Source of the DNA: a virus
DNA length: 39,624 nucleotides
UHGV virus genome: UHGV-0068444
Strand: one strand, 5' to 3'
The position numbers and the translations under genes were made by a program. Shown piece after piece: positions 50 to 20,360 of this stretch. Position 1 is the first letter of the stretch. The number at the start of each line of letters is the position of its first letter. Under the pieces are notes generated by a model. It did not search any database and was not told where the DNA came from. It was given only the letters and a program-made list of their open reading frames with translations.

Positions 50-667
50 GTGAAACGCATAAGGATAAAGAAACCAAGATGGATTTTTGTTATTTTATTT
101 TTTGTATTTTTAGGTATTCCATTATTTATTGATGGTATCAAGTATACTGATTACGCTTCAGAGAATTTGCTGCCTGAATTTACTGGTGTAATACTTGAGT
201 TTGTAATCATTCTTTATGTTATTGATTATATTCAAAAGAAAAATGAGCGTGATAATAAAATAAAAGCAGAAAAACGTTTGCGTGAAATGTTTATTTTTTT
301 CTTTAATAAACTGAATGACCACGTTCCTGAAAATTGCAGGATCGGATCTTTTTACGGGCGAGAGCATGATAAAAATAAGCGTCAAATGTCATTAATGAAA
401 GCCCATATAGAAAAACATGGGCTAGATGAAAAGGCAATAAGAGAAATTCGTATTCATTGCAAAGGTGATATTGATTTATTCAATAGTTTTATTCCAGTTG
501 TTGCTACATTAGAAGAGCAGCATTTAAAAGCATGGACGAGAATTTCATATTACATGAATGCAATAATTACGGAAAGAGAAACTGTACAATTTTCCGTTAT
601 AAAAATCATTGATAAAATACAGACATTTGATGATGCATCCTATAATAATAAACTGATAGTAGATTAA
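50..667 (+). CDS. Hypothetical membrane protein (two N-terminal hydrophobic helices plus charged cytoplasmic domain); AT-rich cargo gene
   Basis: 205-aa ORF with GTG start and AGGT-type RBS; visibly AT-rich versus the adjacent int; converges on and overlaps the int stop by 4 nt. Confidence 0.5.
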   Translation: MKRIRIKKPRWIFVILFFVFLGIPLFIDGIKYTDYASENLLPEFTGVILEFVIILYVIDYIQKKNERDNKIKAEKRLREMFIFFFNKLNDHVPENCRIGSFYGREHDKNKRQMSLMKAHIEKHGLDEKAIREIRIHCKGDIDLFNSFIPVVATLEEQHLKAWTRISYYMNAIITERETVQFSVIKIIDKIQTFDDASYNNKLIVD

Positions 668-1791
668 GAGGGTATTTTTTGCCATTCTTTACCTCTGTCA
701 TCATGATATTTATCTGTTTGATGCTGGGTTTTATGACCCAGCAATTTTTGTGTATCAATTCCCTGGTCTTTGTAAAGACGTTCAGACAATGATCTTTGCT
801 CATGGAATGTAGCGGGTGTTCCATCTCCCCATTTAATACAAGCCTTATCCCTCGCCTTACTGAAATTCATCGTTAATGTGTTCGATTTAACTTGTGCGCC
901 TCGTTTAGCCTGTGATGTAGCTCGGAAAAAGTGAATCAGATAGGGGCTAACTGCATAATCTCGACAGCGCGCAACGACGTCACGTAAACTCCAGTTAATC
1001 GCATTGAGGCGAAGAGAAAGAGGTATAGCAATTTTGCTGCCGGTTTTTTCCTGTTCGATATGCAGATGATCATCCCAGATATCGCTAAATTTCATTTTGG
1101 ATATGTCACCAAGACGTTGCCCAGTCACAAGGGCAAGCAGCATTGCATTTCCCATATATTGATGTTTCTTATCTGCGATATCGAAAATCTTCAGCCACTC
1201 TTCGAGACTAAGTCGTTGTCTGGTAATCTTGCGCCTGGGCTGTTTAGTAGCAAGGGCAGGGTTGTGACCAGGCGGCACTTCACCGTAGTGTTGGGCCTCT
1301 TTGAAAACATCGATCAGTACTGAACGAACAACTTGTGCCATTCTTGGTTGACCTGCAGATAGATACTCTTCAAGAATTTGAGCAATATCCCTGACATCAA
1401 CAGAAGATATGAGCTTCATTCCCGCACGTTCCTTAAGAAGTGCAACTGGCTTGGCTTTTTGTTTATACGTATTCTCCTTGATATCACCTGAAGCGAATCT
1501 TTCCTCCTGAATTTTCCAGTACCGCTCAAGCCAGGTAACAGTGGTAATTGACTTACCCTTGCCGGTAGCAATTCGATCGCTTATAGCCAGTACCTGTCTT
1601 GAACGCTGCTCAGCAAGTCTTGCGTTTGCCTCAGTAGCAATTGCTTTAGCCTCAACTTCATCAGTACCTAGGCTGTGAAATTTCCCCGTTACAGGATGCT
1701 TGTACCTCCAATACACTTTATTGACCTTACGACTGTATAGTGGATAGAGGTTAGGTATTGATACATTATTTTTACGTGGTCTCGCAGCCAT
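664..1791 (-). CDS. int: Tyrosine integrase, lambda Int family
   Basis: Start at MAARPRKNNVSIPNLY (ORF extends to 1869); N-terminus and C-terminal HEQRSLSERLY...LLGHK...YHDDRG region parallel lambda Int arm-binding and catalytic motifs. Confidence 0.9.
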   Translation of the reverse strand: MAARPRKNNVSIPNLYPLYSRKVNKVYWRYKHPVTGKFHSLGTDEVEAKAIATEANARLAEQRSRQVLAISDRIATGKGKSITTVTWLERYWKIQEERFASGDIKENTYKQKAKPVALLKERAGMKLISSVDVRDIAQILEEYLSAGQPRMAQVVRSVLIDVFKEAQHYGEVPPGHNPALATKQPRRKITRQRLSLEEWLKIFDIADKKHQYMGNAMLLALVTGQRLGDISKMKFSDIWDDHLHIEQEKTGSKIAIPLSLRLNAINWSLRDVVARCRDYAVSPYLIHFFRATSQAKRGAQVKSNTLTMNFSKARDKACIKWGDGTPATFHEQRSLSERLYKDQGIDTQKLLGHKTQHQTDKYHDDRGKEWQKIPS

Positions 1792-2017
1792 CGCTGAGGA
1801 TCCTTTGCAATTTTGGTGAATCAGATTTCTTGATAACCGGCGCAGCAAGTTCTCCAACCAATTCCGCATCCTCCCTAACTCTCCAGAGCCTACCTTGCTT
1901 CATTGCTGGTGGAGAAAAGAGATTTTGCTTAGCGTAACGGCGCAATGTCGAGACGCTAGGTGGATTACTTCTGTATTTATCGGTTGCCCATTCTTCAAGA
2001 GTTAACATCTGAATCAT
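1772..2017 (-). CDS. xis: Excisionase (lambda Xis-like)
   Basis: 81 aa; MLTLEEWA...RRYAKQNLFSPP resembles lambda Xis MYLTLQEW...RRWVRECRIFPPP; GGAG RBS; overlaps int start as in lambda. Confidence 0.75.
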   Translation of the reverse strand: MIQMLTLEEWATDKYRSNPPSVSTLRRYAKQNLFSPPAMKQGRLWRVREDAELVGELAAPVIKKSDSPKLQRILSDGCETT

Positions 2018-2691: not shown

Positions 2692-3028
2692 TCCAGGCCT
2701 CCAGCTCATTCTGAATCTCTTCGTCGATTTCGTCATTGGTGGCGTCTTCGTTCAGATAGGCGTGCGCCTCTTTGAAATACTTGTCGCGGCGTTCGTCATA
2801 CCAGGCAGAGAACTCAGGCGACCAGGCATGGGTATGTCCGAAAAAATCGACTCTGGCGTTATCTTCTGCGAGACGCTCAACCATGCAGTAAGCTGTGATC
2901 AAACCGCATTCACGGATGTACCCACGCAGGTCGCGCTTGCGCCAGTACGGGCTATATTTCGAGTCGCAGCGGCTTTTAAATTCGACAGTCCAGCGACGGA
3001 TGCAACGTGCGTTCAGTGATTTACTCAT
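2684..3028 (-). CDS. Hypothetical phage early protein
   Basis: 114-aa ORF; ATGA start/stop overlap with the upstream gene at 3025-3028. Confidence 0.5.
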   Translation of the reverse strand: MSKSLNARCIRRWTVEFKSRCDSKYSPYWRKRDLRGYIRECGLITAYCMVERLAEDNARVDFFGHTHAWSPEFSAWYDERRDKYFKEAHAYLNEDATNDEIDEEIQNELEAWND

Positions 3029-4107: not shown

Positions 4108-4935
4108 TTAGGCTTTAAAGTTACCGATGAAAGTTTCCACTGATTCACCTTCGAACTTGCTGATCAGCAAATCGCGGAATTCATTGGCGATAGCTTCTTC
4201 CTGGGCTTCCAGTTGTACTATGCGCAGTACAAAACGAGGTTCATCACCTGTAAGCAAACTGTTGCGTAAGCTAAAGCGGCGTTCGCCTAAACCTTCATAC
4301 GGCACACATTTGAATTCGAACGTTACCGGCATTACGTCTTTGCTGCTGGCTTCAATACTCTGCATAAGCGATTTTTTGCCGCTGAAATCGCTGTCTTCAT
4401 GATCCTGCTGGGTTGCCTGCTGGATAGTGATACGACGAACGGACTGAGCGGCTTGTGAAATCTGCATCGTTCCACCTTCAGCGTCGAACGCTAAGAGGTA
4501 ATCGCTCCAGTCTTCCAGCCACTCGGCGATTTGTTTTTGTTTCAGACGTTCACCGTTGATCTGGAGAAGAGCACGGAATGGTGCGGTCTGTTTTAGGGTG
4601 ATGGATGCAACATTGTCCGCATGACCGGGGTTATCGAGTGTGCCAATGTTGAATACTGAACGGGCTGTCATATGGTCAGCGTCAATAAAGCAGCGTGCTT
4701 TTTCAGTGGCGCTGGCATAGCCTTTTGAATAACGAGCAAAATCTTCAATGCTGGTCGTGGTCATGGCACCGCGGAAGCGGAAACGCTCCAGAGAAAAACG
4801 CTCGAGGCTTTCAATGCCGGTACCCTCTGGCAGTAATGCGGTCGGGCAAGCCAGGCCATGAATATCATTCAGGTGGTAGCCAGAAAGGACCAGGTCTTTT
4901 ACCTGCTGAAATGTACCGCTGTCTAACTGGGACAT
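4108..4935 (-). CDS. DUF2303 / YfdQ-like phage protein
   Basis: 275-aa ORF; length and position next to the HD gene match the yfdQ-yfdR arrangement of CPS-53-type prophages (recollection, not searched). Confidence 0.55.
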   Translation of the reverse strand: MSQLDSGTFQQVKDLVLSGYHLNDIHGLACPTALLPEGTGIESLERFSLERFRFRGAMTTTSIEDFARYSKGYASATEKARCFIDADHMTARSVFNIGTLDNPGHADNVASITLKQTAPFRALLQINGERLKQKQIAEWLEDWSDYLLAFDAEGGTMQISQAAQSVRRITIQQATQQDHEDSDFSGKKSLMQSIEASSKDVMPVTFEFKCVPYEGLGERRFSLRNSLLTGDEPRFVLRIVQLEAQEEAIANEFRDLLISKFEGESVETFIGNFKA

Positions 4936-6492: not shown

Positions 6493-7203
6493 TTACAATT
6501 TGTTGTAAGCTATTGATTCGTGTAGTAATGCTTTACCCATAATGTACAATTGATCCTGGTTTTCTTCTGTTATGTACCAGTCTTTGTACACCGGGTTATC
6601 GGATAAAACTGCAAGTTGCAAGCCCTGCATCTGCAAGCGCTTCACATGGAAGTGCTGTCCGAATACAAACGCATAAACACCATCAACCTTGAAGTTTCTT
6701 ACCGAAACATCAAAAAACAACCTGTCTCCAGACTGTATAGTTGGACACATGCTGTCGCCATCGACAGTCATCACTTTTACGTCTTCCTGAGAACGATTTC
6801 CGAAAAGTGAACGAGCGTGCTCGGTGGTGAATTCAATGGCGTGTAGAACCTCAACAAATTCAGAGAGCATAAAACATCCAGGACCAGCACTCACAGTAAG
6901 GTCGAGAACTTCTACACGATAATTGTCGGCTTTGTGAGTGGGTACATCAACATCCATTTTTGAAGTTGGACTAAGACCATCCATCCATCCCCGGCTGATT
7001 TTCAAAGCATCCTCGATCTGCCGAGCAGCCTGCTCCCCAATATTCCGCTTATTAGGTTTACCAGCAGGGTAAAGCATCCGAGAAACAACAGTCGGATCAA
7101 GTCCTGCCTTTTCAGCAAACTCTCTTTGGGTCTTAAAGCGAGTTACTAACTCCTGAAGTTTGAGGCGTCGTAACTCGAAGATCTTAGGCGTTTCCGTTTT
7201 CAT
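6493..7203 (-). CDS. CI-type prophage repressor (N-terminal HTH, C-terminal S24 LexA-like autopeptidase)
   Basis: 236 aa; HTH-like N-terminus; C-terminal GDSMCPTI (Ser) and HVKRL (Lys) motifs of S24 peptidases; divergent from the cro-like gene. Confidence 0.85.
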   Translation of the reverse strand: MKTETPKIFELRRLKLQELVTRFKTQREFAEKAGLDPTVVSRMLYPAGKPNKRNIGEQAARQIEDALKISRGWMDGLSPTSKMDVDVPTHKADNYRVEVLDLTVSAGPGCFMLSEFVEVLHAIEFTTEHARSLFGNRSQEDVKVMTVDGDSMCPTIQSGDRLFFDVSVRNFKVDGVYAFVFGQHFHVKRLQMQGLQLAVLSDNPVYKDWYITEENQDQLYIMGKALLHESIAYNKL

Positions 7204-9027: not shown

Positions 9028-9894
9028 ATGAGCCAGATATTTGAAATCGTTCAATCGCTGTCGGGGCAAAGGAATAGCATCACCATTCCGGTCCCGTACC
9101 TCGATTATTTCTCCGGCGATCAGCAGGCGCATGCTTTGGGCGCTGTGCTAAACCAGCTCGTGTTCTGGTCTGGTAAATCAGATCTGAATGATGGCTGGTT
9201 TTATAAAGAGCACAGCGAGCTTGCGGCAGAGATTCGCGGCGTGAGTGAAGATCAGGTGCAGCGCCTGGTAAACAAGATTTGTACCCGCTGGCTACCAGGG
9301 GTTGTTGAAAAGGCGCAGCGACAGGTAAACGGCACGAAAAAGACGCATTACCGTATCAATGGCGAAGCGCTAATCAATGTTTTATTCCCGGCAACGCTGG
9401 ATTCCGCAGAATCGCGGAACGGGAAACGCGAAGTCGCGGAACCTATTCTCTATACAGATCATTACTCAGATCACCACAAACAGATCATTAACCCCTCTTG
9501 TCCGGTTGCGCCGCAACCAGACCCTGAGGTGTTGATCACTGATAACGCCATCCTGGTTTTAACTCATTTGAACCAGGTAAGCGGCTCCCGGTACCAGAAA
9601 TCTAAAACCTCTCTGGAAAACATACGTGCCCGTCTGCGTGAAGGTTATACCGTCAGCGACTTAACGCTGGTGATTGACCTCAAGCATGAACACTGGAACG
9701 GCAATGACGCGCAGTATCAGTACATGCGGCCTGAAACTCTGTTTGGGCCGAAAAAATTTGAGGGTTATCTGCAAAGCGGGCTCCGCTGGGATAAGAAAGG
9801 CCGTCCCCCTCGTGAAAGCTGGGGCGAGAAGAAACATGACCCGATGAAGTTCGGCCCGGTAGATACCAAAATTCCAGAGGGATTCAGAGGATGA
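9028..9894 (+). CDS. Phage replication initiation protein (conserved phage C-terminal replication domain)
   Basis: 288 aa; C-terminal ILVLTHLNQVSGSRYQKSKTSLENIRARLREGYTVSDL...HWNG resembles the Phg_2220_C-type domain of phage replication proteins. Confidence 0.6.
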   Translation: MSQIFEIVQSLSGQRNSITIPVPYLDYFSGDQQAHALGAVLNQLVFWSGKSDLNDGWFYKEHSELAAEIRGVSEDQVQRLVNKICTRWLPGVVEKAQRQVNGTKKTHYRINGEALINVLFPATLDSAESRNGKREVAEPILYTDHYSDHHKQIINPSCPVAPQPDPEVLITDNAILVLTHLNQVSGSRYQKSKTSLENIRARLREGYTVSDLTLVIDLKHEHWNGNDAQYQYMRPETLFGPKKFEGYLQSGLRWDKKGRPPRESWGEKKHDPMKFGPVDTKIPEGFRG

Positions 9895-11213
9895 TTGAAA
9901 ACAAATACTGCCGCGCGCTGGCCGAACTGCGTTCAAAACCAGCTCACGAATTGAAAGAAGTTGGCGATCAGTGGCGGACACCGGATCTGCTTTTCTGGGG
10001 TATCAACGCGCTATTTGGTCCATTAGTTCTGGACTTGTTTGCTGACGACGACAACGCGAAATGCCCGGCATGGTGCACCGCCGAAGATAACGCACTGACG
10101 CAGGACTGGACTGAACGTCTGGCAGAACTGGGTGGCGCGGCTTTTGCCAACCCTCCATATAGCTGCTCGCAGTACCACGAGAAACAGGCGATCACTGGTA
10201 TGACGCACATCATGAAGTACGCAGCAACCCAGCGCGAGAAGGGCGGTCGCTATGTATTCCTGATAAAAGCCGCGCCGAGTGAAACGTGGTGGCCGGAAGA
10301 TGCCGATCACATTGTATTCATTCGCGGGCGCATTGGTTTCGATCTGCCAGTGTGGTTTGTACCTGCTGACGAAAAACAGAAGCCCACCAGCGCGTTTTTT
10401 TCCGGAGCCATAGCTGTATTCGATAAGTCATGGCGTGGCGAGCGATTCAGCTATATCAACCGCACAGAACTGGAAACAAAAGGGCGAGCGTTTATGGCTT
10501 TGGCACAGTTTGCCACCAGCAAACCTCAGCCAGCAACCGCCACACCACCTGTAGCTGACAAGCCAGAAGCAGAGTTGCCACTTACCCAGAAAGATATTTT
10601 TGATATCAGCGGTGTTGAGGCGTGGGCATGCGTTAGAGCTGCGTTCGGCGATAAAGAAGAATACACATTCAGTGAATCGAAGTTTGGGCATACCTGGGCG
10701 GCGGATTCTGTCGAAGCACCGGAATTCACTCAGGTATCACCATTAACGATCGACAAAGCGAAGCTGCTTATTCGTGAGAGTATTTTGCTCGGTGTGGATG
10801 AGTGGCTGTTGTCGATTGAATTCGATGACGCTGCTGCGCGCCTGGATATGTCGGAACGTATTCGTACTGTTGCCCTTGAAGCATCTGGTGAATATGGCAT
10901 GAACAGTACTGATTTCATTGCAGCTATGGGAAGCCTGGATGTTTCCAGTTGGTCCAATATTCGCCAGATCCGCATGCACATCCGTGAGAAAGCTAAACCA
11001 GTAGCCGATCAGCTTCCCGAGTCCCGTATATGGCCACTGGAGGTTGGAATTGTATTCGACCAGGTGGATGGTGCTGACATGCTGGATGAATCACAGCAGA
11101 ACAAGCTGAAAGCCAACATCAATCAACTCTGGCTGGAACGAACGGCCACCAGCGAAATTATCACAATTGCGCAAGGTCTTGTCGACAGCATGCAGGGGGT
11201 AACTCATGCGTGA
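9891..11213 (+). CDS. Phage Dam-type N6-adenine DNA methyltransferase fused to a ~250-aa C-terminal domain of unknown function
   Basis: 440 aa; N-terminal WRTPDLLF...LVLDLFADD...FANPPYS motifs; Pro/Ala/Thr-rich linker (ATSKPQPATATPPVADKPEAELP) then an unassigned domain. Confidence 0.65.
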   Translation: MIENKYCRALAELRSKPAHELKEVGDQWRTPDLLFWGINALFGPLVLDLFADDDNAKCPAWCTAEDNALTQDWTERLAELGGAAFANPPYSCSQYHEKQAITGMTHIMKYAATQREKGGRYVFLIKAAPSETWWPEDADHIVFIRGRIGFDLPVWFVPADEKQKPTSAFFSGAIAVFDKSWRGERFSYINRTELETKGRAFMALAQFATSKPQPATATPPVADKPEAELPLTQKDIFDISGVEAWACVRAAFGDKEEYTFSESKFGHTWAADSVEAPEFTQVSPLTIDKAKLLIRESILLGVDEWLLSIEFDDAAARLDMSERIRTVALEASGEYGMNSTDFIAAMGSLDVSSWSNIRQIRMHIREKAKPVADQLPESRIWPLEVGIVFDQVDGADMLDESQQNKLKANINQLWLERTATSEIITIAQGLVDSMQGVTHA

Positions 11214-11327
11214 AACAGTCTTTTATCGCCCTGCCGGTATAGCGCCTATTTCGGATGTTGTTCAACGTGTTCGTCACTATAGCGGGAAAGTTGAGGTATG
11301 TTTCAGGAATTATGACGGAGGCTTTTA

Positions 11328-11714
11328 ATGAGGCTCATACTCCCATTTCCACCCAGCGTGAACACTTACTGGCGCGCTCCTAACAAGGGGGCGCAGGCTG
11401 GTCGTCACCTCATTAGCGCTGAAGGCCGTAAATACCAGAGCGCTGCCTGCGTGGCGATCATTGAGCAATTACGACGTCTCCCGAAGCCATCGACTGAACT
11501 GGCAGCGGTAGAAATCACTCTGTACCCGCCGGATGCGCGCCGCCGGGATATCGATAATTACAACAAAGCCCTGTTTGACGCGCTGACGCATGCGGGTGTC
11601 TGGGAAGATGACAGCCAGATTAAGCGCATGCTGGTGGAATGGGGACCCGTAGTGCCGAAAGGTCGGGTAGAGATAACGATCAGCAGATATGAACCGGCGG
11701 GTGCAGCCGCCTGA
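11328..11714 (+). CDS. rusA: RusA-family Holliday junction resolvase
   Basis: 128 aa; LPFPPSVNTYWR...RRRDIDNYNKALFDALTHAGVWEDDSQI parallels E. coli RusA. Confidence 0.85.
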   Translation: MRLILPFPPSVNTYWRAPNKGAQAGRHLISAEGRKYQSAACVAIIEQLRRLPKPSTELAAVEITLYPPDARRRDIDNYNKALFDALTHAGVWEDDSQIKRMLVEWGPVVPKGRVEITISRYEPAGAAA

Positions 11715-13427: not shown

Positions 13428-14117
13428 ATGAATCAACAAGACCTGAATTTTGTAAGAATAGAATTGCGCCGCGCGCTACCTGACCTCTCTGGGGGAACAA
13501 AAGGGCAGCTTGAGGCTTTCAGTGAACACCCACCAGCAGACAAAAATGCCACCCCGCGCCGTGGAATTCATCTCGTCGAACTCGAAGGAGAGAAGGGGCC
13601 TCGCTTTGTTAACTCGCTTTCCGCGCCATTGTATGTATTGGAAACACGCAGCCGCTGCAGGCCAATGCCGCCGATAAAAGATGCGGAATTTGAGTCCGCG
13701 CCGTGGCGTAGGGCAGTGTCCGCGCTTAGTGGATACCAGCAGGCCTGGTTGCGGTACTGCTACGGTTTTGACCTTAGCTATAAGCACCAGGTGATGATGT
13801 GTGAATACGTCTGGAAAACTTATCAGAAATGTCTGGGTGATAATTCCCTTCAGGAGCGCGTAGTAAAGAAACTGATTGGCCTGGTATGGCTGGCAGGGCA
13901 GGAAATTGCCGCAACCAGAAATAATGAAACCTATAAAGACTATGCTGGTGCAGCGTTGGCCCGCATGGTTAGCGTTGATCGTTCGACATGGTTGCGTGTC
14001 TATTCAGGGCACTGGGCTGGGTTAAAGGCCGCTTTTACCCAGCTTGATGAATCTGCGTTGGCAATGGCTCTTGAATACTATGAGGAAGAAGAAGCCCTCA
14101 AAGTGGCAGAAATGTAA
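13428..14117 (+). CDS. Late-gene antitermination protein, Q-like
   Basis: Start MNQQDLNF (alternative GTG at 13407); position between nin-like genes and a tR'-type terminator; family assignment by context and recollection. Confidence 0.55.
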   Translation: MNQQDLNFVRIELRRALPDLSGGTKGQLEAFSEHPPADKNATPRRGIHLVELEGEKGPRFVNSLSAPLYVLETRSRCRPMPPIKDAEFESAPWRRAVSALSGYQQAWLRYCYGFDLSYKHQVMMCEYVWKTYQKCLGDNSLQERVVKKLIGLVWLAGQEIAATRNNETYKDYAGAALARMVSVDRSTWLRVYSGHWAGLKAAFTQLDESALAMALEYYEEEEALKVAEM

Positions 14118-14212
14118 AGTAAATTTCACTATCTCCTTCAAACGCGCTTGCAAAATGCAACAAAATAAGCCATATTTAAAGCGTATTTGATATGTTGCCA
14201 AAGTTTTATAAA
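14118..14212 (+). promoter_or_regulatory. Presumed late promoter (PR') and Q-utilisation region
   Basis: Inferred from position between the Q-like gene and the tR'-like terminator; candidate -35 TTGCAA and -10 TATTTA hexamers; exact site not determined. Confidence 0.35.
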
Positions 14213-14233
14213 CCCGCCAATGAGCGGGTTTTT
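14213..14233 (+). terminator. tR'-like intrinsic terminator
   Basis: cccgc-caatga-gcggg hairpin followed by TTTTT, about 100 nt downstream of the Q-like stop. Confidence 0.7.
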
Positions 14234-14280
14234 GCGTTATAATTCACCGATTTAAACCAATTGTTTTAAATAGGTGAAGT

Positions 14281-15132
14281 ATGAAAATAGATAATCCCGA
14301 AAATCCACTTGAACGAAACGATTTTTCGATGGATGACTTCCATCACTACTTAAGGGAGTTTGATAAAGCTGTATGTGAAGCGAATGCTGTAAGTCAGGGG
14401 GTTGGTGTGCGAATGGCTGAGGCTTTTAAAGGGTGGTCTACATACATTTTTTCACGAATCTGCATTCATGCTTCAATAATGATTTCCAACGTACCAAAAT
14501 CAAGATGGGCTAAGCGGGATTATGACTTTTGGGATTTTTCGGCGATTGCACCTCATGTAAGAGCGATTCTGGAAGCTGAGTTATTGTTTATGTATTTATC
14601 TGAGAATCCAGATTCAACTGAGGAGTGGTCAGCAAAGTTGAATGTCATGCACATGAATGATTGTGTAAAGAGAATTGAGTTATTTACATCTAGTGATAAT
14701 ACGAAAGCATTGGATTTTTATCATGAACAAAAAGATATAATAACTGAGAGACTTAATAACAACCCTGTTTTTTTATCCCTTGAACAAGGAACCAGAAAAC
14801 GTTGCTTGACTGGAAAAGCGCTTATGATTCCAAATCGAGATGAGTTATTGGTTAAACTGGGAAAAGATCCAAAGTCATTTAAAATAATGTTCGATTTTTT
14901 ATCTCATTATACGCATATACTACCTATGTCATATTATAAAATGGAGCCAAACGGAAGAGGAACTGGTTGTTTTAACAACTATGACTTTGGCTATATGATT
15001 ATGGGGATGATTATTTGTACTGAATCCTTGACTAAGTGTACAGATAGATTAGTAGAACTTTTTCCTGATGTTAGACGGTTGCGAAAAGGAACTAAATCAA
15101 AATTCACGTTAGGTCCTAAACCTACAAAATAA
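14281..15132 (+). CDS. AT-rich hypothetical protein (283 aa), cargo gene; function unknown
   Basis: ATG after AGGTGAAG RBS; visibly lower GC than flanking phage genes; no hydrophobic segments; no motif recognised. Confidence 0.6.
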   Translation: MKIDNPENPLERNDFSMDDFHHYLREFDKAVCEANAVSQGVGVRMAEAFKGWSTYIFSRICIHASIMISNVPKSRWAKRDYDFWDFSAIAPHVRAILEAELLFMYLSENPDSTEEWSAKLNVMHMNDCVKRIELFTSSDNTKALDFYHEQKDIITERLNNNPVFLSLEQGTRKRCLTGKALMIPNRDELLVKLGKDPKSFKIMFDFLSHYTHILPMSYYKMEPNGRGTGCFNNYDFGYMIMGMIICTESLTKCTDRLVELFPDVRRLRKGTKSKFTLGPKPTK

Positions 15133-15162
15133 CAATGAGTCGCTTGCTGCTATTTTAAAGGC

Positions 15163-15185
15163 TTCCAAATGGAAGTCTTTTATAA
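15163..15185 (+). terminator. Weak hairpin terminator after the 14281-15132 gene
   Basis: cttcc-aaat-ggaag stem-loop followed by tcttttat. Confidence 0.35.
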
Positions 15186-15350
15186 TTTCAGGTTTCGCAA
15201 ATTATACTTATCTTCACATTTTCATAATAGCGCATAAGCCAGCCCCCCCTCCATCAACCACAGCGCCATACGAACTATCGGAGGTGAGGCTAAATTAGTA
15301 ATCGTTCTTACCTGCACAGGTGCATAAAAATCAGCCTAAAATGCGAGTTT

Positions 15351-16013
15351 TTATGAAGAGAGCAGCATGACTTTTTCTTTTGCGGGCGAAGGTGACTGCT
15401 CTTTCAAAGGGAAAATTATAAATGCTATAAATGCAGTAAATAATACTATGAAAGCTAGCACTGTAACTTTCCTTGAAGATGATAGGGCTTTGTTATATTC
15501 CTTGGCTATTTTGTTCGTTATATGGATCTTAGTGCTATTTATTTCATCTTTTAGTATGGATAATTTATTTATAAATTCCTGTGTTTCTTCTCGAGAGTAA
15601 AGTTCTGAAGCATCTCTTGGGGTTTCATGTGGATGCCGAGTATAACCAAGTATTTGTGGTATTAAATTACCATGCGATTGAACTACAGATTCATATTTCT
15701 TATAGCAAGCATTATCAAAAAATCTCATTCTTATGCTAAGTTCTCTGAGTTTGTCAACGTCTAGAGAAACTTGTTCGTTGGCAATAATTAAATCTCCGCG
15801 GTTTAATGTATTCTTGTGTTGAAAAATTAGTAAAAGCCATTCTGTATTATTGTAAAGCTTTTCAAGATTGGCATGTATATCAAGTCCGAGTTTTTCATAT
15901 GCGGATAATTTGACCTCTTTTTCCTTTGCAGAAAGAGAAGATGAATAAGCCAGTAATCCGCTTATTATGGCAACAATAAATGTTCCTATAATGGTTAAGG
16001 TATTCGAGTCCAT
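15351..16013 (-). CDS. AT-rich hypothetical membrane protein (one N-terminal and one C-terminal TM helix), cargo gene
   Basis: Start MDSNTLTIIGTFIVAIISGLL (ORF extends to 16070); C-terminal VLAFIVLFTAFIAFIIF hydrophobic helix; convergent with the 14281 gene. Confidence 0.55.
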   Translation of the reverse strand: MDSNTLTIIGTFIVAIISGLLAYSSSLSAKEKEVKLSAYEKLGLDIHANLEKLYNNTEWLLLIFQHKNTLNRGDLIIANEQVSLDVDKLRELSIRMRFFDNACYKKYESVVQSHGNLIPQILGYTRHPHETPRDASELYSREETQEFINKLSILKDEINSTKIHITNKIAKEYNKALSSSRKVTVLAFIVLFTAFIAFIIFPLKEQSPSPAKEKVMLLSS

Positions 16014-16120
16014 TGTATTCTTCAAAAGTTGGTCAAAAATATATTGTAATATTTTAATGTATAAAATCAATCATTTCCCCTCATTCTGAGAGGACTCCCA
16101 GCAACAAAGAGGGGGGCTAA

Positions 16121-17666: not shown

Positions 17667-17808
17667 GGTTATTGACACCGGCTGCGATTGGGTAAAACCC
17701 ATCTACGGCACTGCTCATGATTGGGAAGTGCTGGACAGGCAGACCAAGAAAGACATTCTTATGCATAACAAAGTGTGGATGTCAAACTGTGGCTCTATAA
17801 CTTATTGA
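17587..17808 (+). CDS. Outer-membrane lipoprotein spanin (Rz1-like), overlapping Rz out of frame
   Basis: MYNRLLTICLMTLLIASC has a lipobox (LIASC); starts inside the Rz-like ORF in another frame. Confidence 0.6.
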   Translation: MYNRLLTICLMTLLIASCAKTGHVRIEVIDTGCDWVKPIYGTAHDWEVLDRQTKKDILMHNKVWMSNCGSITY

Positions 17809-18459
17809 TTTTGTTTTTTTGTTGTCTACCATATCAGGCAATGTGAAGGCATATAGAAGAAATACTTCGGTGAAACCAATCATTTCTTGAGCATCTTCTT
17901 TTGAAAATTCTTCATCAGAATGAACTGCTCCATTGGAATCGATTCGAACTATATGTGCCCATTCCCTCATTTGATCTGTAATCAGTCCCTTAGCATGCAA
18001 CATAGAAATCCGTTTAACCAATTTTTCATCTTTTGAGTCATTTCCCAGTAACTCCCGTGTAGCAATGTCCAAGACTTTACGGCAAAGCATAACGGATGTG
18101 TCGAAACGACAGCGCCCTAAGTTGTCTTTTGCTTCTATGAAAGCCATAGCAGCACGTGGCGGAGTGTGTTCGGGGGCGTTAAGGAGGGTGGGTTTCGGGA
18201 TGATATCAATCAACTGGTACTCAGTATTTCCAGGAATGATTACGTTTACATCATTATTTTGCCTAGATTTTGCACGAGGTAAATAACCACCGGGATTATT
18301 CATTTTTACAATAGCAATACCTGATTGAAAACAGCTTCGACAACAAAATGCAATATTAACTAAAGGCCCGGCGTTGATACGCAGTTCTGCCCATCCTTCA
18401 AGGACAGCATTTTCCCTCAGACAATGTGGGCAAGTGATATCGAAAGTGAGAATTCGCAT
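17782..18459 (-). CDS. Hypothetical protein with N-terminal zinc-ribbon (CPHC...CCRSC) and C-terminal helical domain; reverse-strand cargo gene
   Basis: Start MRILTFDITCPHCL after GGAG RBS (ORF extends to 18504); moderately AT-rich; C-terminal region loosely reminiscent of DUF4145-type domains (unverified). Confidence 0.55.
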   Translation of the reverse strand: MRILTFDITCPHCLRENAVLEGWAELRINAGPLVNIAFCCRSCFQSGIAIVKMNNPGGYLPRAKSRQNNDVNVIIPGNTEYQLIDIIPKPTLLNAPEHTPPRAAMAFIEAKDNLGRCRFDTSVMLCRKVLDIATRELLGNDSKDEKLVKRISMLHAKGLITDQMREWAHIVRIDSNGAVHSDEEFSKEDAQEMIGFTEVFLLYAFTLPDMVDNKKTKSISYRATV

Positions 18460-19140
18460 GACTCTACTCCATACATTAAAAGAAATTGAAAATGAATTAC
18501 ACAATGCACAACGACCTGAGTCTACACTCCTTCAACGATATGAAGTATCGAATGAGATTAAAAAAAAGGAGTTTGTAGTCGCTTTGATCGGTAAACTGAT
18601 AGAATTGGACCGCCGTCTCTATGTCACATCATTGAAGCCTTAGTTTCAATTTTACCGATTTATCGCTTAAGGGGTAGGACTTCAACACTACTAAGTGAGC
18701 ATTGCAGCAGGCATTCAGGGGAATGCTGTGACAGTAGTTAGCTAGGGTAAACCGTTTGCGCCTGGGGATTTTACTTTGCGACGGAAAATTAAAAAACTAT
18801 ATGATTTCTTATCCCACTAGGATGTCTGCGGACTACTACTGACTGTTTAGGCTATTACGAGGGGCTCAAACTCAACGTCTGGCATCAACGCAGAACTGAA
18901 AAAGTCGCCATGAATGTGGTTACGGTATTTGGTGGGATATAAACGTACCTTCATTTCTAAGCTTGATAATCACCTTTGTCCGAATTGCCTACGCGATAGT
19001 CATGTAGTTTTAGTCATAACCGTTTACCCTATTGATGTCAAGATAAATTGGATAACACTGATGAATCGAACCTCTAAATCCTTTGATGGGCCACTCATAG
19101 CTGACTGGTTCAAAAAAGTGTTATCAATGGTATGATAAGT

Positions 19141-19170
19141 TGAGATGAAAGGTGTAAATGAACTATAATA
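19141..19170 (+). promoter_or_regulatory. Sigma70-like promoter for the 19205-19854 two-gene cassette
   Basis: -35 TTGAGA (19141-19146), 18-bp spacer, -10 TATAAT (19165-19170). Confidence 0.5.
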
Positions 19171-19204
19171 ATTCAACAGTTAATCTGAGAAAAATGGATT
19201 ATGT

Positions 19205-19474
19205 ATGTCGAATGTAAAAAAAATAGATGCTATAGTTCAAAATTTATTTGAATTCAGAGATGCTACAGGTGAACTTACGGATAAAAATATTGTTTTAATA
19301 CAAAAAATCATAACGAACTTACCTGACTATGCTGGTAAGGATCCATATGAATTTTATTCATCATTTTCTGAAGATATTAATGAGTCGCTCAAAGCAATTG
19401 CCAATTATCATAAGGCACATGCTAAATACATTAATGCCCTCGATAAATTAGCAGAGCTTAGGTCGGAGGGGTAA
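19205..19474 (+). CDS. Small hypothetical soluble protein (89 aa), first gene of an AT-rich cassette
   Basis: Very AT-rich ORF; stop lies 2 nt before the start of the next gene. Confidence 0.55.
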   Translation: MSNVKKIDAIVQNLFEFRDATGELTDKNIVLIQKIITNLPDYAGKDPYEFYSSFSEDINESLKAIANYHKAHAKYINALDKLAELRSEG

Positions 19475-19476
19475 TA

Positions 19477-19854
19477 ATGGCTACGGAAGATATTCAGGCT
19501 TTGTTATCTAAAGTTAATGCGTTAAGATTTGAAGATAAAAGAATAGAGAAGGAAACAGGAGAGATTGAAAATGAAATTCAGGCTCAATTTCTTCGTGATG
19601 GTAAAACAAGGAGTACATTAACCATAACATTTATGAGAGGCTTTTTTGGTCTTATCGTTTTTTCTTTTATATTTGTGATAGCTTATAACTATTGCGCAGT
19701 GCAATGGGTACTTCAATTACAAAGCAAAGGGCTCATGGAGGCTTCTAAAAGTATCGCACTACTTGAGTTAGATAAGGTGTTATCTATTATGGTTAGTGCG
19801 TTAGGAACATCTCTTGGGTTTATAATTGGCTATTATTTTAAAGACAAAAAATAA
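19477..19854 (+). CDS. Hypothetical membrane protein (125 aa): charged helical N-terminus plus two C-terminal TM helices
   Basis: FFGLIVFSFIFVIAYNY and VLSIMVSALGTSLGFIIGYYF hydrophobic segments; followed by a strong terminator. Confidence 0.55.
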   Translation: MATEDIQALLSKVNALRFEDKRIEKETGEIENEIQAQFLRDGKTRSTLTITFMRGFFGLIVFSFIFVIAYNYCAVQWVLQLQSKGLMEASKSIALLELDKVLSIMVSALGTSLGFIIGYYFKDKK

Positions 19855-19930
19855 ATAATTTAATTTTACATTGCTATTTATGTTTTGCTTTTAAGATTTT
19901 TAACTTTCTAGATGTAGAGTTATTGTTAAA

Positions 19931-19958
19931 GCACTGGTATTTGCCAGTGCTTTTTTAT
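19931..19958 (+). terminator. Intrinsic terminator closing the 19205-19854 cassette
   Basis: gcactgg-tatttg-ccagtgc hairpin followed by TTTTTT. Confidence 0.7.
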
Positions 19959-20360
19959 TAAAATCCGCGGATTAATGACGGCAATCATGAATACTCCTCC
20001 AAAGACTGATCCAACGATACGGGTGTATAAGTCACACTTGTTTAATCTGTGATTGATGGCACTATAATTTATGTTGCACAACATAAACTGCCGATGGAGG
20101 GAATTGAGTGCTGAGCATGTCAGACATAAGTGTGTTGTCGAAGGTCTCCTCAGGCATGGTTTCTGCATAACGTCGACACTTGAAAGCCTCCATAATGACA
20201 ATAAAGTATAAGTATTATCATTATTAATTGTCACTTGCCGTTGCGACATGCTTGGGCGGCGACCGCCTAAGTTCTCTTTATAAATGAGAAGTTCCCGCTA
20301 GCGACCGTTTCTGATTCTTTTTTTCTACTAAGTTTGTATCAAATAAACAGGATAATGCCG

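Follow-up and report, generated by a model that had tools for sequence, protein, structure and literature searches.

The 440-aa open reading frame at 9891..11213 (+) of the virus genome UHGV-0068444 (39,624 nt, the whole of which is called the window here) is predicted to encode a phage N6-adenine DNA methyltransferase that carries two uncharacterised helical modules, AB and C, behind its catalytic domain. Comparison of homologues and of their gene neighbourhoods suggests, with a probability that we put at roughly 45%, that phage DNA-modification enzymes use AB and C as accessory or docking modules and that C is the partner of a large C5-cytosine methyltransferase. Phage orphan methyltransferases are usually annotated only by their catalytic domain; in this case, over half of the protein is made up of conserved, folded modules that belong to no described family. 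The C family (phrog_16025) has no Pfam entry, and AB has neither a Pfam nor a PHROG family.

Gene position and catalytic domain

The reading frame starts with ATG and was confirmed as a real gene. It belongs to the early-right operon of a lambdoid prophage and directly follows the gene for an O-like replication initiator; its start codon overlaps the initiator stop codon as ATGA (9891-9894). The region contains the following features:

9028..9894, + strand: O-like replication initiator (288 aa, Phg_2220_C domain; PF09524, E=7.7e-24)
9891..10505, + strand: PF05869/TIGR01712 phage N6-adenine DNA methyltransferase domain, residues 1-205 (profile matches)
10506..10571, + strand: linker 1, residues 206-227, Pro/Ala/Thr-rich, predicted disordered (pLDDT, alignment)
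10572..10994, + strand: module AB, residues 228-368, eight helices (AlphaFold2 model, alignment)
10995..11015, + strand: linker 2, residues 369-375, predicted disordered (pLDDT)
11016..11213, + strand: module C, residues 376-440 (about 376-437) and stop codon, three helices (PHROG matches, alignment)
11206..11327, + strand: empty site of a C5-methyltransferase cassette (homology breakpoints against cassette-bearing loci)
11328..11714, + strand: RusA Holliday-junction resolvase (PF05866, E=1.5e-16; conserved downstream neighbour)

The original prediction of an N-terminal Dam-like methyltransferase with a FANPPYS motif was borne out by two profile matches above their cut-offs: Pfam PF05869 'Dam' covers residues 19-199 (E=2.5e-43, 148.1 bits against a cut-off of 28.1; profile positions 3-167 of 169), and NCBIfam TIGR01712 'phage N-6-adenine-methyltransferase' covers residues 16-196 (197.1 bits against a cut-off of 97.05). 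FANPPYS occupies residues 85-91 (nt 10143-10163), and the motif IV NPPY within it (residues 87-90, nt 10149-10160) is kept in every aligned full-length homologue. The PADLOC model MTase_II PDLC03332 matches the protein with E=4e-156. Phage HP1 Dam and similar PF05869 members have about 165-169 residues, and some members of the family target GATC. Residues 1-205 correspond to a full-length member of these HP1/T1-type phage Dam methyltransferases, with NPPY, in a phage-borne orphan enzyme; the family models span about 165-169 positions, whereas the window protein has 235 extra residues that form two folded modules.

The slot after the O-like initiator is a DNA-methyltransferase slot, which related phages fill with interchangeable DNA-modification enzymes. 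Behind initiators that are 53-79% identical, it holds a D12 Dam, an MT-A70-like enzyme, a beta-class N4/N6 enzyme or a C5-Dam fusion, and the loci with these other methyltransferases have no AB, no C and no helicase loader. Dam+C without AB occurs behind initiators about 85-95% identical to that of the window. The RusA gene forms the downstream boundary of the modification slot.

Two candidate relatives were discarded. E. coli K-12 YfdM, for which a phage phenotype has been published (bioRxiv 10.1101/413146), was considered to be module C, but its translation covers the first 91 aa of the Dam domain, as far as NPPY, so that study says nothing on the tail. Hia5 and Hin1523 are non-specific adenine methyltransferases that have DPPY and FxGxG motifs and, according to their description (PMC3299994), are related to E. 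coli Dam, DpnM and T4 Dam; they apparently belong to a different family. A literature search on the Nissle prophage methyltransferase, ST64B sb44 and accessory proteins of C5 methyltransferases found nothing relevant.

The C-terminal tail comprises two modules

The tail had been described as a Pro/Ala/Thr-rich linker followed by a single acidic domain of about 250 aa that resisted assignment. The linker and the acidity are as described: the Pro/Ala/Thr-rich stretch (about residues 208-227) reads SKPQPATATPPVADKPEAE, and residues 230-439 have a pI of 4.5, with 35 D+E and 19 K+R. The single domain gave way to two separable modules, each of which occurs without the other and each of which is acidic (pI 4.2-5.0; C has a pI of 4.2, with 11 D+E in 67 residues). 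Linker 1 differs in length and sequence among homologues, appearing as variable-length insertions in the alignment, and residues 211-228 have pLDDT <50 in the full-length AlphaFold2 model. Linker 2 likewise falls below 50, at residues 372-379 of that model and at model residues 148-156 in a model of residues 223-440.

The AlphaFold2 model of residues 223-440 is all-helical, with a pLDDT of 85 (about 90 in the AB part), and the full-length model has a pLDDT of 66 and a pTM of 0.39, with no confident packing between domains. In these models, AB and C are predicted to be autonomous folded modules on disordered linkers. The alignment yields motifs of invariant residues in AB, SGVEAWAC..AAFG.K.EY.F.ESKF.HTWAAD and W.NIR.IR, and a motif in C, WP.EV..VF.Q......L...Q..L...IN..WLE, in which W, P, E, N and L are invariant.

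Searches beyond the alignment were mostly negative for family membership. Residues 206-440 have no Pfam match at E<=0.01, AB and C taken separately have none at E<=1, and NCBIfam gives none in the tail; AB hits no family in either Pfam or PHROGs. Foldseek with the model of residues 223-440 returned nothing from BFVD or PDB at E<=0.001, and a sequence search of PDB chains gave only a chance match. A profile search with AB recovered no new architectures and no more than 16 proteins, most of them fragments. Module C matches phrog_16025 (E=2e-11) and phrog_111 (E=1.9e-22), and the alignment supports its homology to the stand-alone proteins of phrog_16025. The profile and structure analyses proposed with the original prediction delivered all-helical modules and disordered linkers, and neither a Pfam family nor a convincing structural neighbour.

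Distribution, architectures and selection

The gene is common in Enterobacterales prophages. Of 5426 complete E. coli genomes, 25 have a gene about 94% identical, among them that of Nissle 1917, whose copy (WP_001704140.1, 439 aa) bears the annotation phage methyltransferase. In the phage collection, megablast gave no match; tblastn did return relatives. Among 80 related IMG/VR loci reached via the initiator gene, a Dam gene with one or both modules lies directly 3' of the initiator in 72, mostly starting at the initiator stop codon. C is carried on Dam in 69 of these 80 loci and the full Dam+AB+C arrangement is found in 37; the latter is also the main architecture in 80 further loci reached via the AB module. 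The loci within each set share phylogeny, and these counts are not phylogenetically independent. Protein lengths are 292-299 aa for Dam+C, about 397 aa for Dam+AB and 440-445 aa for Dam+AB+C. One possibility raised at the outset was that the tail is a known domain routinely fused in this family; it is routinely fused, as the 69 loci show, and is not a known domain.

Judged from codon comparisons, all three parts are under purifying selection, with median dN/dS values of 0.07 (Dam), 0.10-0.125 (AB) and 0.19-0.24 (C), and the AB and C motifs persist at 30-45% identity across genera and fusion partners. The region itself is highly mosaic, with split or frameshifted genes, deletion chimeras and variation in cassette presence; in one chimera (P0013), Dam+AB is joined to the C-terminus of a C5 enzyme.

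AB is common only to the Dam fusions and to ParB-like proteins of the same genomic slot. The ParB-like carriers are gp48 of Pantoea phage AH07 and three others (P0128, P0133, P0137); in these, AB lies C-terminal to a ParB HTH (PF17762), and the N-terminal portion is presumably a ParB/Srx part. In phage AH07, the gene after gp48 is annotated as a tRNA-guanine-transglycosylase-like enzyme. Clusters of phage DNA-modification genes are known to include ParB-like proteins, such as DpdB, which is encoded beside DpdA in 7-deazaguanine systems. The window protein shares AB with the ParB-HTH proteins of its slot, which may be counterparts of DpdB, but it has a Dam domain and no ParB-like N-terminus. 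Homologues as separate genes, a further point raised at the outset, exist for C, in at least 710 clusters, while AB offers none that is convincing: what looked like stand-alone B+C or AB proteins (P0010, P0006, P0167 and P0163/4) turned out to reflect an assembly gap, a deletion derivative, a split by frameshift and fragments at contig ends.

Module C and the large C5-cytosine methyltransferase

The stand-alone C proteins are mostly 85-94-aa 'hypothetical proteins'. Some carry the labels 'DNA methyltransferase', 'DNA adenine methylase' or 'PAPS reductase', which were transferred from neighbouring genes and are probably wrong; for the PHROG label 'DNA methyltransferase' on C relatives, Pfam gave no methyltransferase family match even at E<=1. 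C also forms the tail of Dam, MT-A70, ParB-like (ParB-HTH) and PAPS-reductase+Dam proteins.

Of 67 C-ending genes in the first locus set, 49 are followed by a large C5-cytosine methyltransferase gene, with stop and start overlapping. Starting in reverse from the C5 enzyme, with one locus per species, we found a C-ending reading frame directly upstream and overlapping the start of the C5 gene in 77 of 80 species. These 77 comprise 42 stand-alone C proteins or proteins with another N-terminus, 33 Dam+C and 2 Dam+AB+C; in one species (L172), C and the C5 enzyme are fused in frame. Stand-alone C followed by the C5 enzyme was seen in unrelated phage backbones. The stand-alone phrog_16025 proteins are separate genes overlapping the C5 gene start, whereas C in the window is a covalent tail of Dam. 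The C5 enzymes (PF00145) have 575-760 aa, begin MREIIVDNFAGGGG and contain the motifs FAGGGG, PDC, ENV and GNAVPP. One locus (L025) has a distinct 709-aa C5-Dam fusion in the same slot, without C. Distance matrices correlate strongly for all pairs (r=0.83 for C-C5, 0.89 for C-Dam, 0.84 for Dam-C5), as expected from linkage, and do not set the C-C5 pair apart. The adjacency of C and C5, together with the frequent fusions upstream, could be a by-product of gene order.

The window lacks the C5 gene. An ATG at 11206 (M-R-E) matches the codon at which the large C5 methyltransferase begins in related phages, and a 113-nt spacer (11214-11327), with RusA next, stands where relatives have a C5 gene of about 1.9 kb. 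Homology to three cassette-bearing loci (L034, L035, L038) ends at the stop codon of the Dam fusion and restarts at the RusA start, and the window contains no C5-enzyme match in six frames at E<=10. Because the cassette is absent, module C of the window is an orphan tail. C is likewise kept without the C5 enzyme in E. coli Nissle, in ST64B and in about 29 of 80 AB-bearing IMG/VR loci. Orphan C has a dN/dS of 0.19, which is not relaxed; its retention indicates that either C is useful without the C5 enzyme or the losses are recent. Since the divergence may be older than the loss of the cassette, the dN/dS value does not distinguish between the two. In the window, C may still serve the Dam domain in cis, or it may be a recent leftover.

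Proposed role of the modules

The genome context suggests that C partners or docks the large prophage C5-cytosine methyltransferase, which is encoded immediately downstream of C in most relatives and would be translationally coupled to it. As the tail of a Dam, MT-A70 or ParB-like enzyme, C would bring that enzyme together with the C5 enzyme in a single modification unit, a non-covalent counterpart of the Dam-Dcm fusions, in which the link is covalent. AB, too, may be an accessory module, perhaps one for docking or oligomerisation, a reading of which we are less sure. A physical interaction of C or AB, and an effect on methylation, are what we infer from the domain boundaries, modularity, purifying selection, slot and genomic associations observed here. 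The fuller version of this model is doubtful in our estimation: C would be a previously unrecognised small-protein family and the obligatory partner of a possibly multispecific C5 enzyme, the tails would assemble a multi-enzyme complex, and AB would be a second docking module.

Precedents exist for parts of this arrangement. Phage P1 Dmt is a Dam-Dcm fusion, and M.EcoHK31I and M.AquI consist of alpha and beta chains, the small chain providing missing catalytic motifs. The likeness lies in the pairing of adenine and cytosine methylation, or of a C5 enzyme with an adjacent or overlapping small polypeptide. Here, in contrast to M.EcoHK31I and M.AquI, the C5 enzyme has its own motifs, and C has no methyltransferase motif.

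If C is indeed the partner of the C5 enzyme, it would belong to a two-component cytosine methyltransferase that is widespread among the prophages of Klebsiella, Citrobacter, Enterobacter, Salmonella and E. coli. This would explain the same tail on unrelated modification enzymes and would bear on restriction evasion by temperate phages and on the reading of bacterial methylomes. If the modules are simple oligomerisation tails, the finding is an ordinary one. Since the probiotic E. coli Nissle 1917 carries this type of gene, experiments are easy to set up.

Alternative explanations

The modules could instead act in cis, with AB and/or C dimerising the PF05869 enzyme, holding it on DNA or gating its activity, and with the link to the C5 enzyme secondary. 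We regard this as rather unlikely, even though orphan C invariably sits on a methyltransferase and is under purifying selection. ParB proteins usually have their dimerisation domain at the C-terminus, the position that AB takes in the ParB-like proteins, and the invariant Arg and Asn in the last AB helix (NIR.IR) could contact nucleic acid. PDLC03332 (297 positions) matches the window protein in two stretches and so appears to include C; the PF05869 and TIGR01712 models, however, have only about 165-169 positions. The acidity of both modules is unlike that of typical DNA-binding domains, the abundant stand-alone C precedes a C5 enzyme and not a Dam, and the full-length model (pTM 0.39) packs the domains with no confidence. 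An involvement of the tail in replication, which had been suggested at the outset, is quite improbable. The tail would replace a missing lambda-P/DnaC-type loader, or link the enzyme physically with the O-like initiator or replisome, yet its only likeness to such loaders is its position directly after the initiator gene. The modules show no Pfam, NCBIfam or fold similarity to helicase loaders (PF06992, AAA+ loader domain) and are dispensable in phages with related initiators, where other methyltransferases fill the slot without AB, C or any loader; an obligatory co-occurrence of AB or C with the initiator fails for the same reason. Stand-alone C also coexists with a lambda-P-type protein (L095) and occurs in non-lambdoid contexts (L089, L096). 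As C in most relatives sits just before the large C5 methyltransferase gene, the tail probably has its place in DNA modification rather than in replication. To this extent, the companion suggestion that the tail retargets or regulates the methyltransferase fared better, its link to methyltransferase biology being upheld by the position of C next to the C5 enzyme.

An anti-restriction role, in which C would be a small acidic inhibitor of type IV nucleases (McrBC, Mrr) that guards newly methylated phage or host DNA, seems improbable. McrBC and McrA classically target 5mC, and a small helical protein of about 60 aa with an acidic pI of 4.2 that is predicted to be tightly co-expressed with the C5 methyltransferase in 77 of 80 species, retained without it and fused indifferently to several enzymes would suit this role. 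The acidity of C is moderate, however, its 11 D+E in 67 residues giving a charge density below that of known DNA mimics, and fold searches showed no similarity to Ocr, ArdA or Arn. The C5-Dam fusion of L025 occupies the same slot without C, and the in-frame C-C5 fusion suggests a role in the same complex instead. The idea that the tail has no function of its own and is debris left by recurrent in-frame fusions and deletions at a recombination hotspot can draw on the mosaic region, with the P0013 chimera, its split or frameshifted genes and the presence or absence of the cassette. It is scarcely credible given a dN/dS of 0.10-0.24 across many divergent copies, folded models of high confidence, and motifs that are maintained at 30-45% identity across genera and fusion partners.

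Results

The open reading frame at 9891-11213 (+) is intact, with 440 codons; its ATG and the stop codon of the gene before it overlap as ATGA. Its Dam-like N-terminus with the FANPPYS motif, as proposed in the original prediction, was confirmed by matches to Pfam PF05869 'Dam' (residues 19-199, 148 bits against a cut-off of 28) and to the NCBIfam equivalog TIGR01712 'phage N-6-adenine-methyltransferase' (residues 16-196, 197 bits against 97), the motif occupying residues 85-91 of the 440-aa protein. On these profiles, the catalytic domain is an ordinary PF05869/TIGR01712 member. The Pro/Ala/Thr-rich linker and the acidic, unassignable tail behind it were also correctly described: the linker is followed by ~210 residues with a pI of 4.5 and no match in Pfam or NCBIfam. 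The prediction of one ~250-aa C-terminal domain stood as regards an extra tail but not as regards a single domain, since homologue lengths, which form discrete classes, and an AlphaFold2 model show two modules, a middle one (AB, residues ~228-368) and a last one (C, ~376-437).

Length classes of the homologues
292-299 aa: Dam, linker and the last ~65 residues (C); Citrobacter, Salmonella, phage ST64B (sb44), phage LLS (gp45)
~397 aa: Dam, linker and the middle ~140 residues (AB), without C; Atlantibacter, Phytobacter
440-445 aa: Dam, AB and C; the window, Nissle 1917, phages Eeyore and Flotzy

The model of residues 223-440 (mean pLDDT 85) is all-helical, with eight helices in AB, three in C and a disordered stretch between; the full-length model is poor (pTM 0.39), with no confident packing among Dam, AB and C. 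AB begins with the strongly conserved motif SGVEAWAC..AAFG.K.EY.F.ESKF.HTWAAD and ends in a conserved helix (W.NIR.IR), and C carries WP.EV..VF.Q......L...Q..L...IN..WLE. Tail matches amounted to only 43 representatives in 1.84 billion clustered proteins (E<=0.001); the family is narrow.

The same architecture was seen again in dozens of independent viral contigs, and 25 complete E. coli genomes carry a copy at ~94% nucleotide identity; the Nissle 1917 copy (439 aa) is annotated just as a phage N-6-adenine-methyltransferase. Purifying selection acts on all parts, with median dN/dS values of 0.07 for Dam, 0.10-0.125 for AB and 0.19-0.24 for C. Given this recurrence, the E. coli copies and the selection, the frame is neither a chance reading frame nor a sequencing fusion. 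In E. coli K-12, YfdM (b2356; L007 6113-6388) comprises just the first 91 residues of the PF05869 domain and stops at NPPY; judged by this sequence, it cannot be a complete methyltransferase. A preprint credits T1-like phage propagation to YfdM 'methylase' activity and names K-12 YfdQ as the second CPS-53 gene required for the phage SW1 phenotype (10.1101/413146).

The window is a lambdoid prophage with the following surroundings.

Features around the methyltransferase gene
664-1869 (-), integrase, first in gene order
4108-4935 (-), DUF2303/YfdQ homologue, between integrase and S24 repressor
6493-7203 (-), S24 repressor, preceding the cro-like gene
between S24 repressor and O-like initiator, cro-like and YmfL/CII-like genes
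9028-9894, O-like initiator with a Phg_2220_C domain, directly 5' of the methyltransferase gene
11328-11714, RusA, next gene after the methyltransferase gene
downstream of RusA, in order, Ant/KilAC antirepressor, DUF968/HNH gene, antiterminator Q

We sampled 80 IMG/VR loci encoding a relative of the initiator, using longest-ORF gene calls in all compared loci. In 72 of the 80, the gene immediately 3' of the initiator is a PF05869 gene bearing AB, C or both, mostly starting at the initiator stop codon. Locus counts here and below overstate independence because loci within each set are related, for which a species-level set and unrelated phage backbones partly compensate. Exception loci carry another DNA methyltransferase in this slot, at times behind a small PerC/YfdN-like gene, and none of the enzymes listed below bears AB or C.

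Enzymes in the slot of exception loci
L025: 709-aa fusion of C5-cytosine methyltransferase and D12-Dam
L026: D12-class Dam
L028, L029, L044, L045: DPPW enzymes, MT-A70-like in appearance
L041: beta-class N4/N6 enzyme

The slot acts as an exchange site for at least five methyltransferase families (PF05869, D12 Dam, MT-A70-like, beta-class N4/N6 and C5) and also for ParB-like proteins. Many related phages, but not the window, have a small protein (106-158 aa), seemingly a LexA DNA-binding domain alone, between methyltransferase and RusA (L025 8075-8413; L026 7246-7584; L027 7328-7804; L028 7630-8082; L029 7636-7956; L088 7473-7949; L177 6618-6947), Pfam-confirmed for L088 and L177 and assigned by sequence similarity in the others; interference with the SOS response is a possible role.

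C is associated with a large C5-cytosine methyltransferase gene. In phage Eeyore, the Dam+AB+C gene and the start of a 646-aa PF00145 gene overlap by 8 nt, and in our first locus set a large C5-cytosine methyltransferase gene follows with such an overlap in 49 of 67 C-ending genes; in the remaining 18, RusA is next, as in the window. The reverse test, with the C5 enzyme as query and one genome per species, yielded 80 loci (45-99% identity), 77 of which have a C-terminated frame ending at the C5 start codon (42 stand-alone small proteins or frames with another N-terminus, 33 Dam+C, 2 Dam+AB+C). In Yersinia frederiksenii (L172), C and the C5 enzyme form a single in-frame fusion with C at the N-terminal end, and the rest are one non-enterobacterial locus without C and one truncated locus. 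Among the N-termini joined to C ahead of the C5 enzyme are those of MT-A70 adenine methyltransferases, of a ParB-HTH protein and of PAPS-reductase+Dam proteins. The original prediction had proposed a search for homologues as separate genes, and C does occur as one: stand-alone C is phrog_16025, with at least 710 clusters of 85-94-aa 'hypothetical proteins' in Klebsiella, Citrobacter, Enterobacter, Salmonella, E. coli and Serratia, and it precedes the C5 enzyme in unrelated phage backbones too, one with a lambda-P-type gene. C is missing from L025, the other C5-Dam fusion. In the genomes, C is almost obligatorily linked to a single family of large C5 methyltransferases, in one instance by fusion.

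The middle part of these enzymes (575-760 aa) is variable and very long and contains a P..T(I/V)TAGG-like motif four or more times (L003 5656-7593; L088 5494-7476; L089 5743-7785; L097-L176 near position 3001), which calls to mind multispecific phage C5 methyltransferases with their several target-recognition domains. Set against L003, the 405-aa protein P0013 is a deletion chimera in which Dam and most of AB run in frame into the C-terminal ~85 residues of the large C5 enzyme, which shows the fluidity of the region.

No frame of the window holds any remnant of the large C5 enzyme. Nucleotide homology to cassette-bearing relatives breaks off precisely with the Dam-fusion stop codon (11213) and restarts at the RusA start (11328), with a 113-nt spacer, shared among compared loci only with L008-L010, in place of the ~1.9-kb C5 gene. 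An ATG at 11206, 8 nt ahead of the Dam gene stop codon (11211-11213), reads M-R-E, as does the conserved beginning of the C5 enzyme (MREIIVDNFAGGGG), and opens a 40-codon frame (11206-11328) whose remainder is spacer sequence. From this sequence, the interval resembles a vacant site for a ~1.9-kb cassette that some phages carry and others lack. C in the window is an orphan tail, as the large C5 enzyme is absent and the spacer stands in its place. Orphan C is common (Nissle 1917, ST64B and about 29 of 80 AB-bearing IMG/VR loci) and has no visible relaxation of selection by dN/dS, an estimate with which recent loss is compatible.

AB has no true stand-alone gene among our matches, so the separate homologues sought for the tail do not extend to this module. 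Apart from Dam fusions, only ParB-like proteins carry it, at their C-terminus (AH07 gp48, P0127, P0128, P0133, P0137), and the genes for these proteins in intact prophages occupy the same slot, behind the initiator or a PerC-like gene and ahead of RusA, Ant, DUF968 and Q. Among compared loci, it has no association with initiator subtype or the C5 cassette. In Pantoea phage AH07 (gp48-gp49; L004 3173-5247) and in L092 (6001-8275), the AB-bearing ParB-like gene is followed by a 251-aa gene. Pfam finds nothing in either 251-aa protein; the AH07 annotation as archaeosine tRNA-guanine transglycosylase-like hints at a 7-deazaguanine DNA-modification pair.

Discussion

Our analysis shows that the catalytic PF05869 domain is followed by two helical modules on flexible linkers, which are folded, under selection and shuffled independently of each other, and that the gene occupies a dedicated modification slot. 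The gene itself is not new, being already in databases under the PF05869/TIGR01712 name. As far as libraries and searchable papers show, the nature of its tail has not been described; AB has no family in Pfam or PHROG, and C is only an unannotated PHROG bearing a transferred label.

Our tentative reading, to which we give a probability of about 0.45 on gene order and fusions, is that C is a docking module or partner of the large C5 methyltransferase and, as a tail, would couple the upstream modification enzyme to it. AB may be a second accessory module for Dam and ParB-like enzymes, perhaps acting in docking or oligomerisation. Bifunctional Dam-Dcm enzymes (P1 Dmt) and two-polypeptide C5 methyltransferases (M.EcoHK31I, M.AquI) are the closest functional analogies; unlike in the two-polypeptide enzymes, C is devoid of methyltransferase motifs, and the large C5 enzyme seems complete. 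The earlier idea that the tail retargets or regulates the methyltransferase survives in this modified form, as a methyltransferase accessory with C coupled to the large C5 enzyme.

A mirror-tree test did not discriminate among the partner, cis-helper, anti-restriction, replication and debris readings. That the tail is a cis-acting helper of Dam itself is unlikely, though the most probable of the rivals, and an anti-restriction role against modification-dependent nucleases is improbable. A replication role was originally suggested by the absence of a separate helicase-loader gene. This absence was borne out, with no recognisable helicase, primase or loader gene in the window prophage, but the exception-locus phages, with initiators 53-79% identical to that of the window, have no recognisable loader either, and the missing gene is a trait of the whole phage group. 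Initiators ~85-95% identical to that of the window precede both AB-bearing and AB-less variants; together with the exception loci, this makes AB and C dispensable for the initiator's job. The main argument for replication is therefore gone, and this role, in a slot that is a methyltransferase slot, is unsupported and in our view quite improbable. Non-functional debris is the least probable reading, and very much so.

Two further features of the prophage were observed. The O-like initiator (9028-9894; loci L031-L087) is a mosaic whose N- and C-terminal halves recombine independently, since in many relatives the match, at 85-97% identity, covers either residues 1-167 or residues 153-288 but not both. 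Low-GC islands (1-1000, 14001-16000 and 19001-20000; GC 0.32-0.37 against ~0.52 elsewhere) include one after Q with ORFs at 14281-15132 (weak DUF5677 match) and 15351-16070 (no match); these and, outside the islands, ORF 17782-18504 (weak PADLOC PD-T7-4 match, E=0.002) are probably morons or defence cargo.
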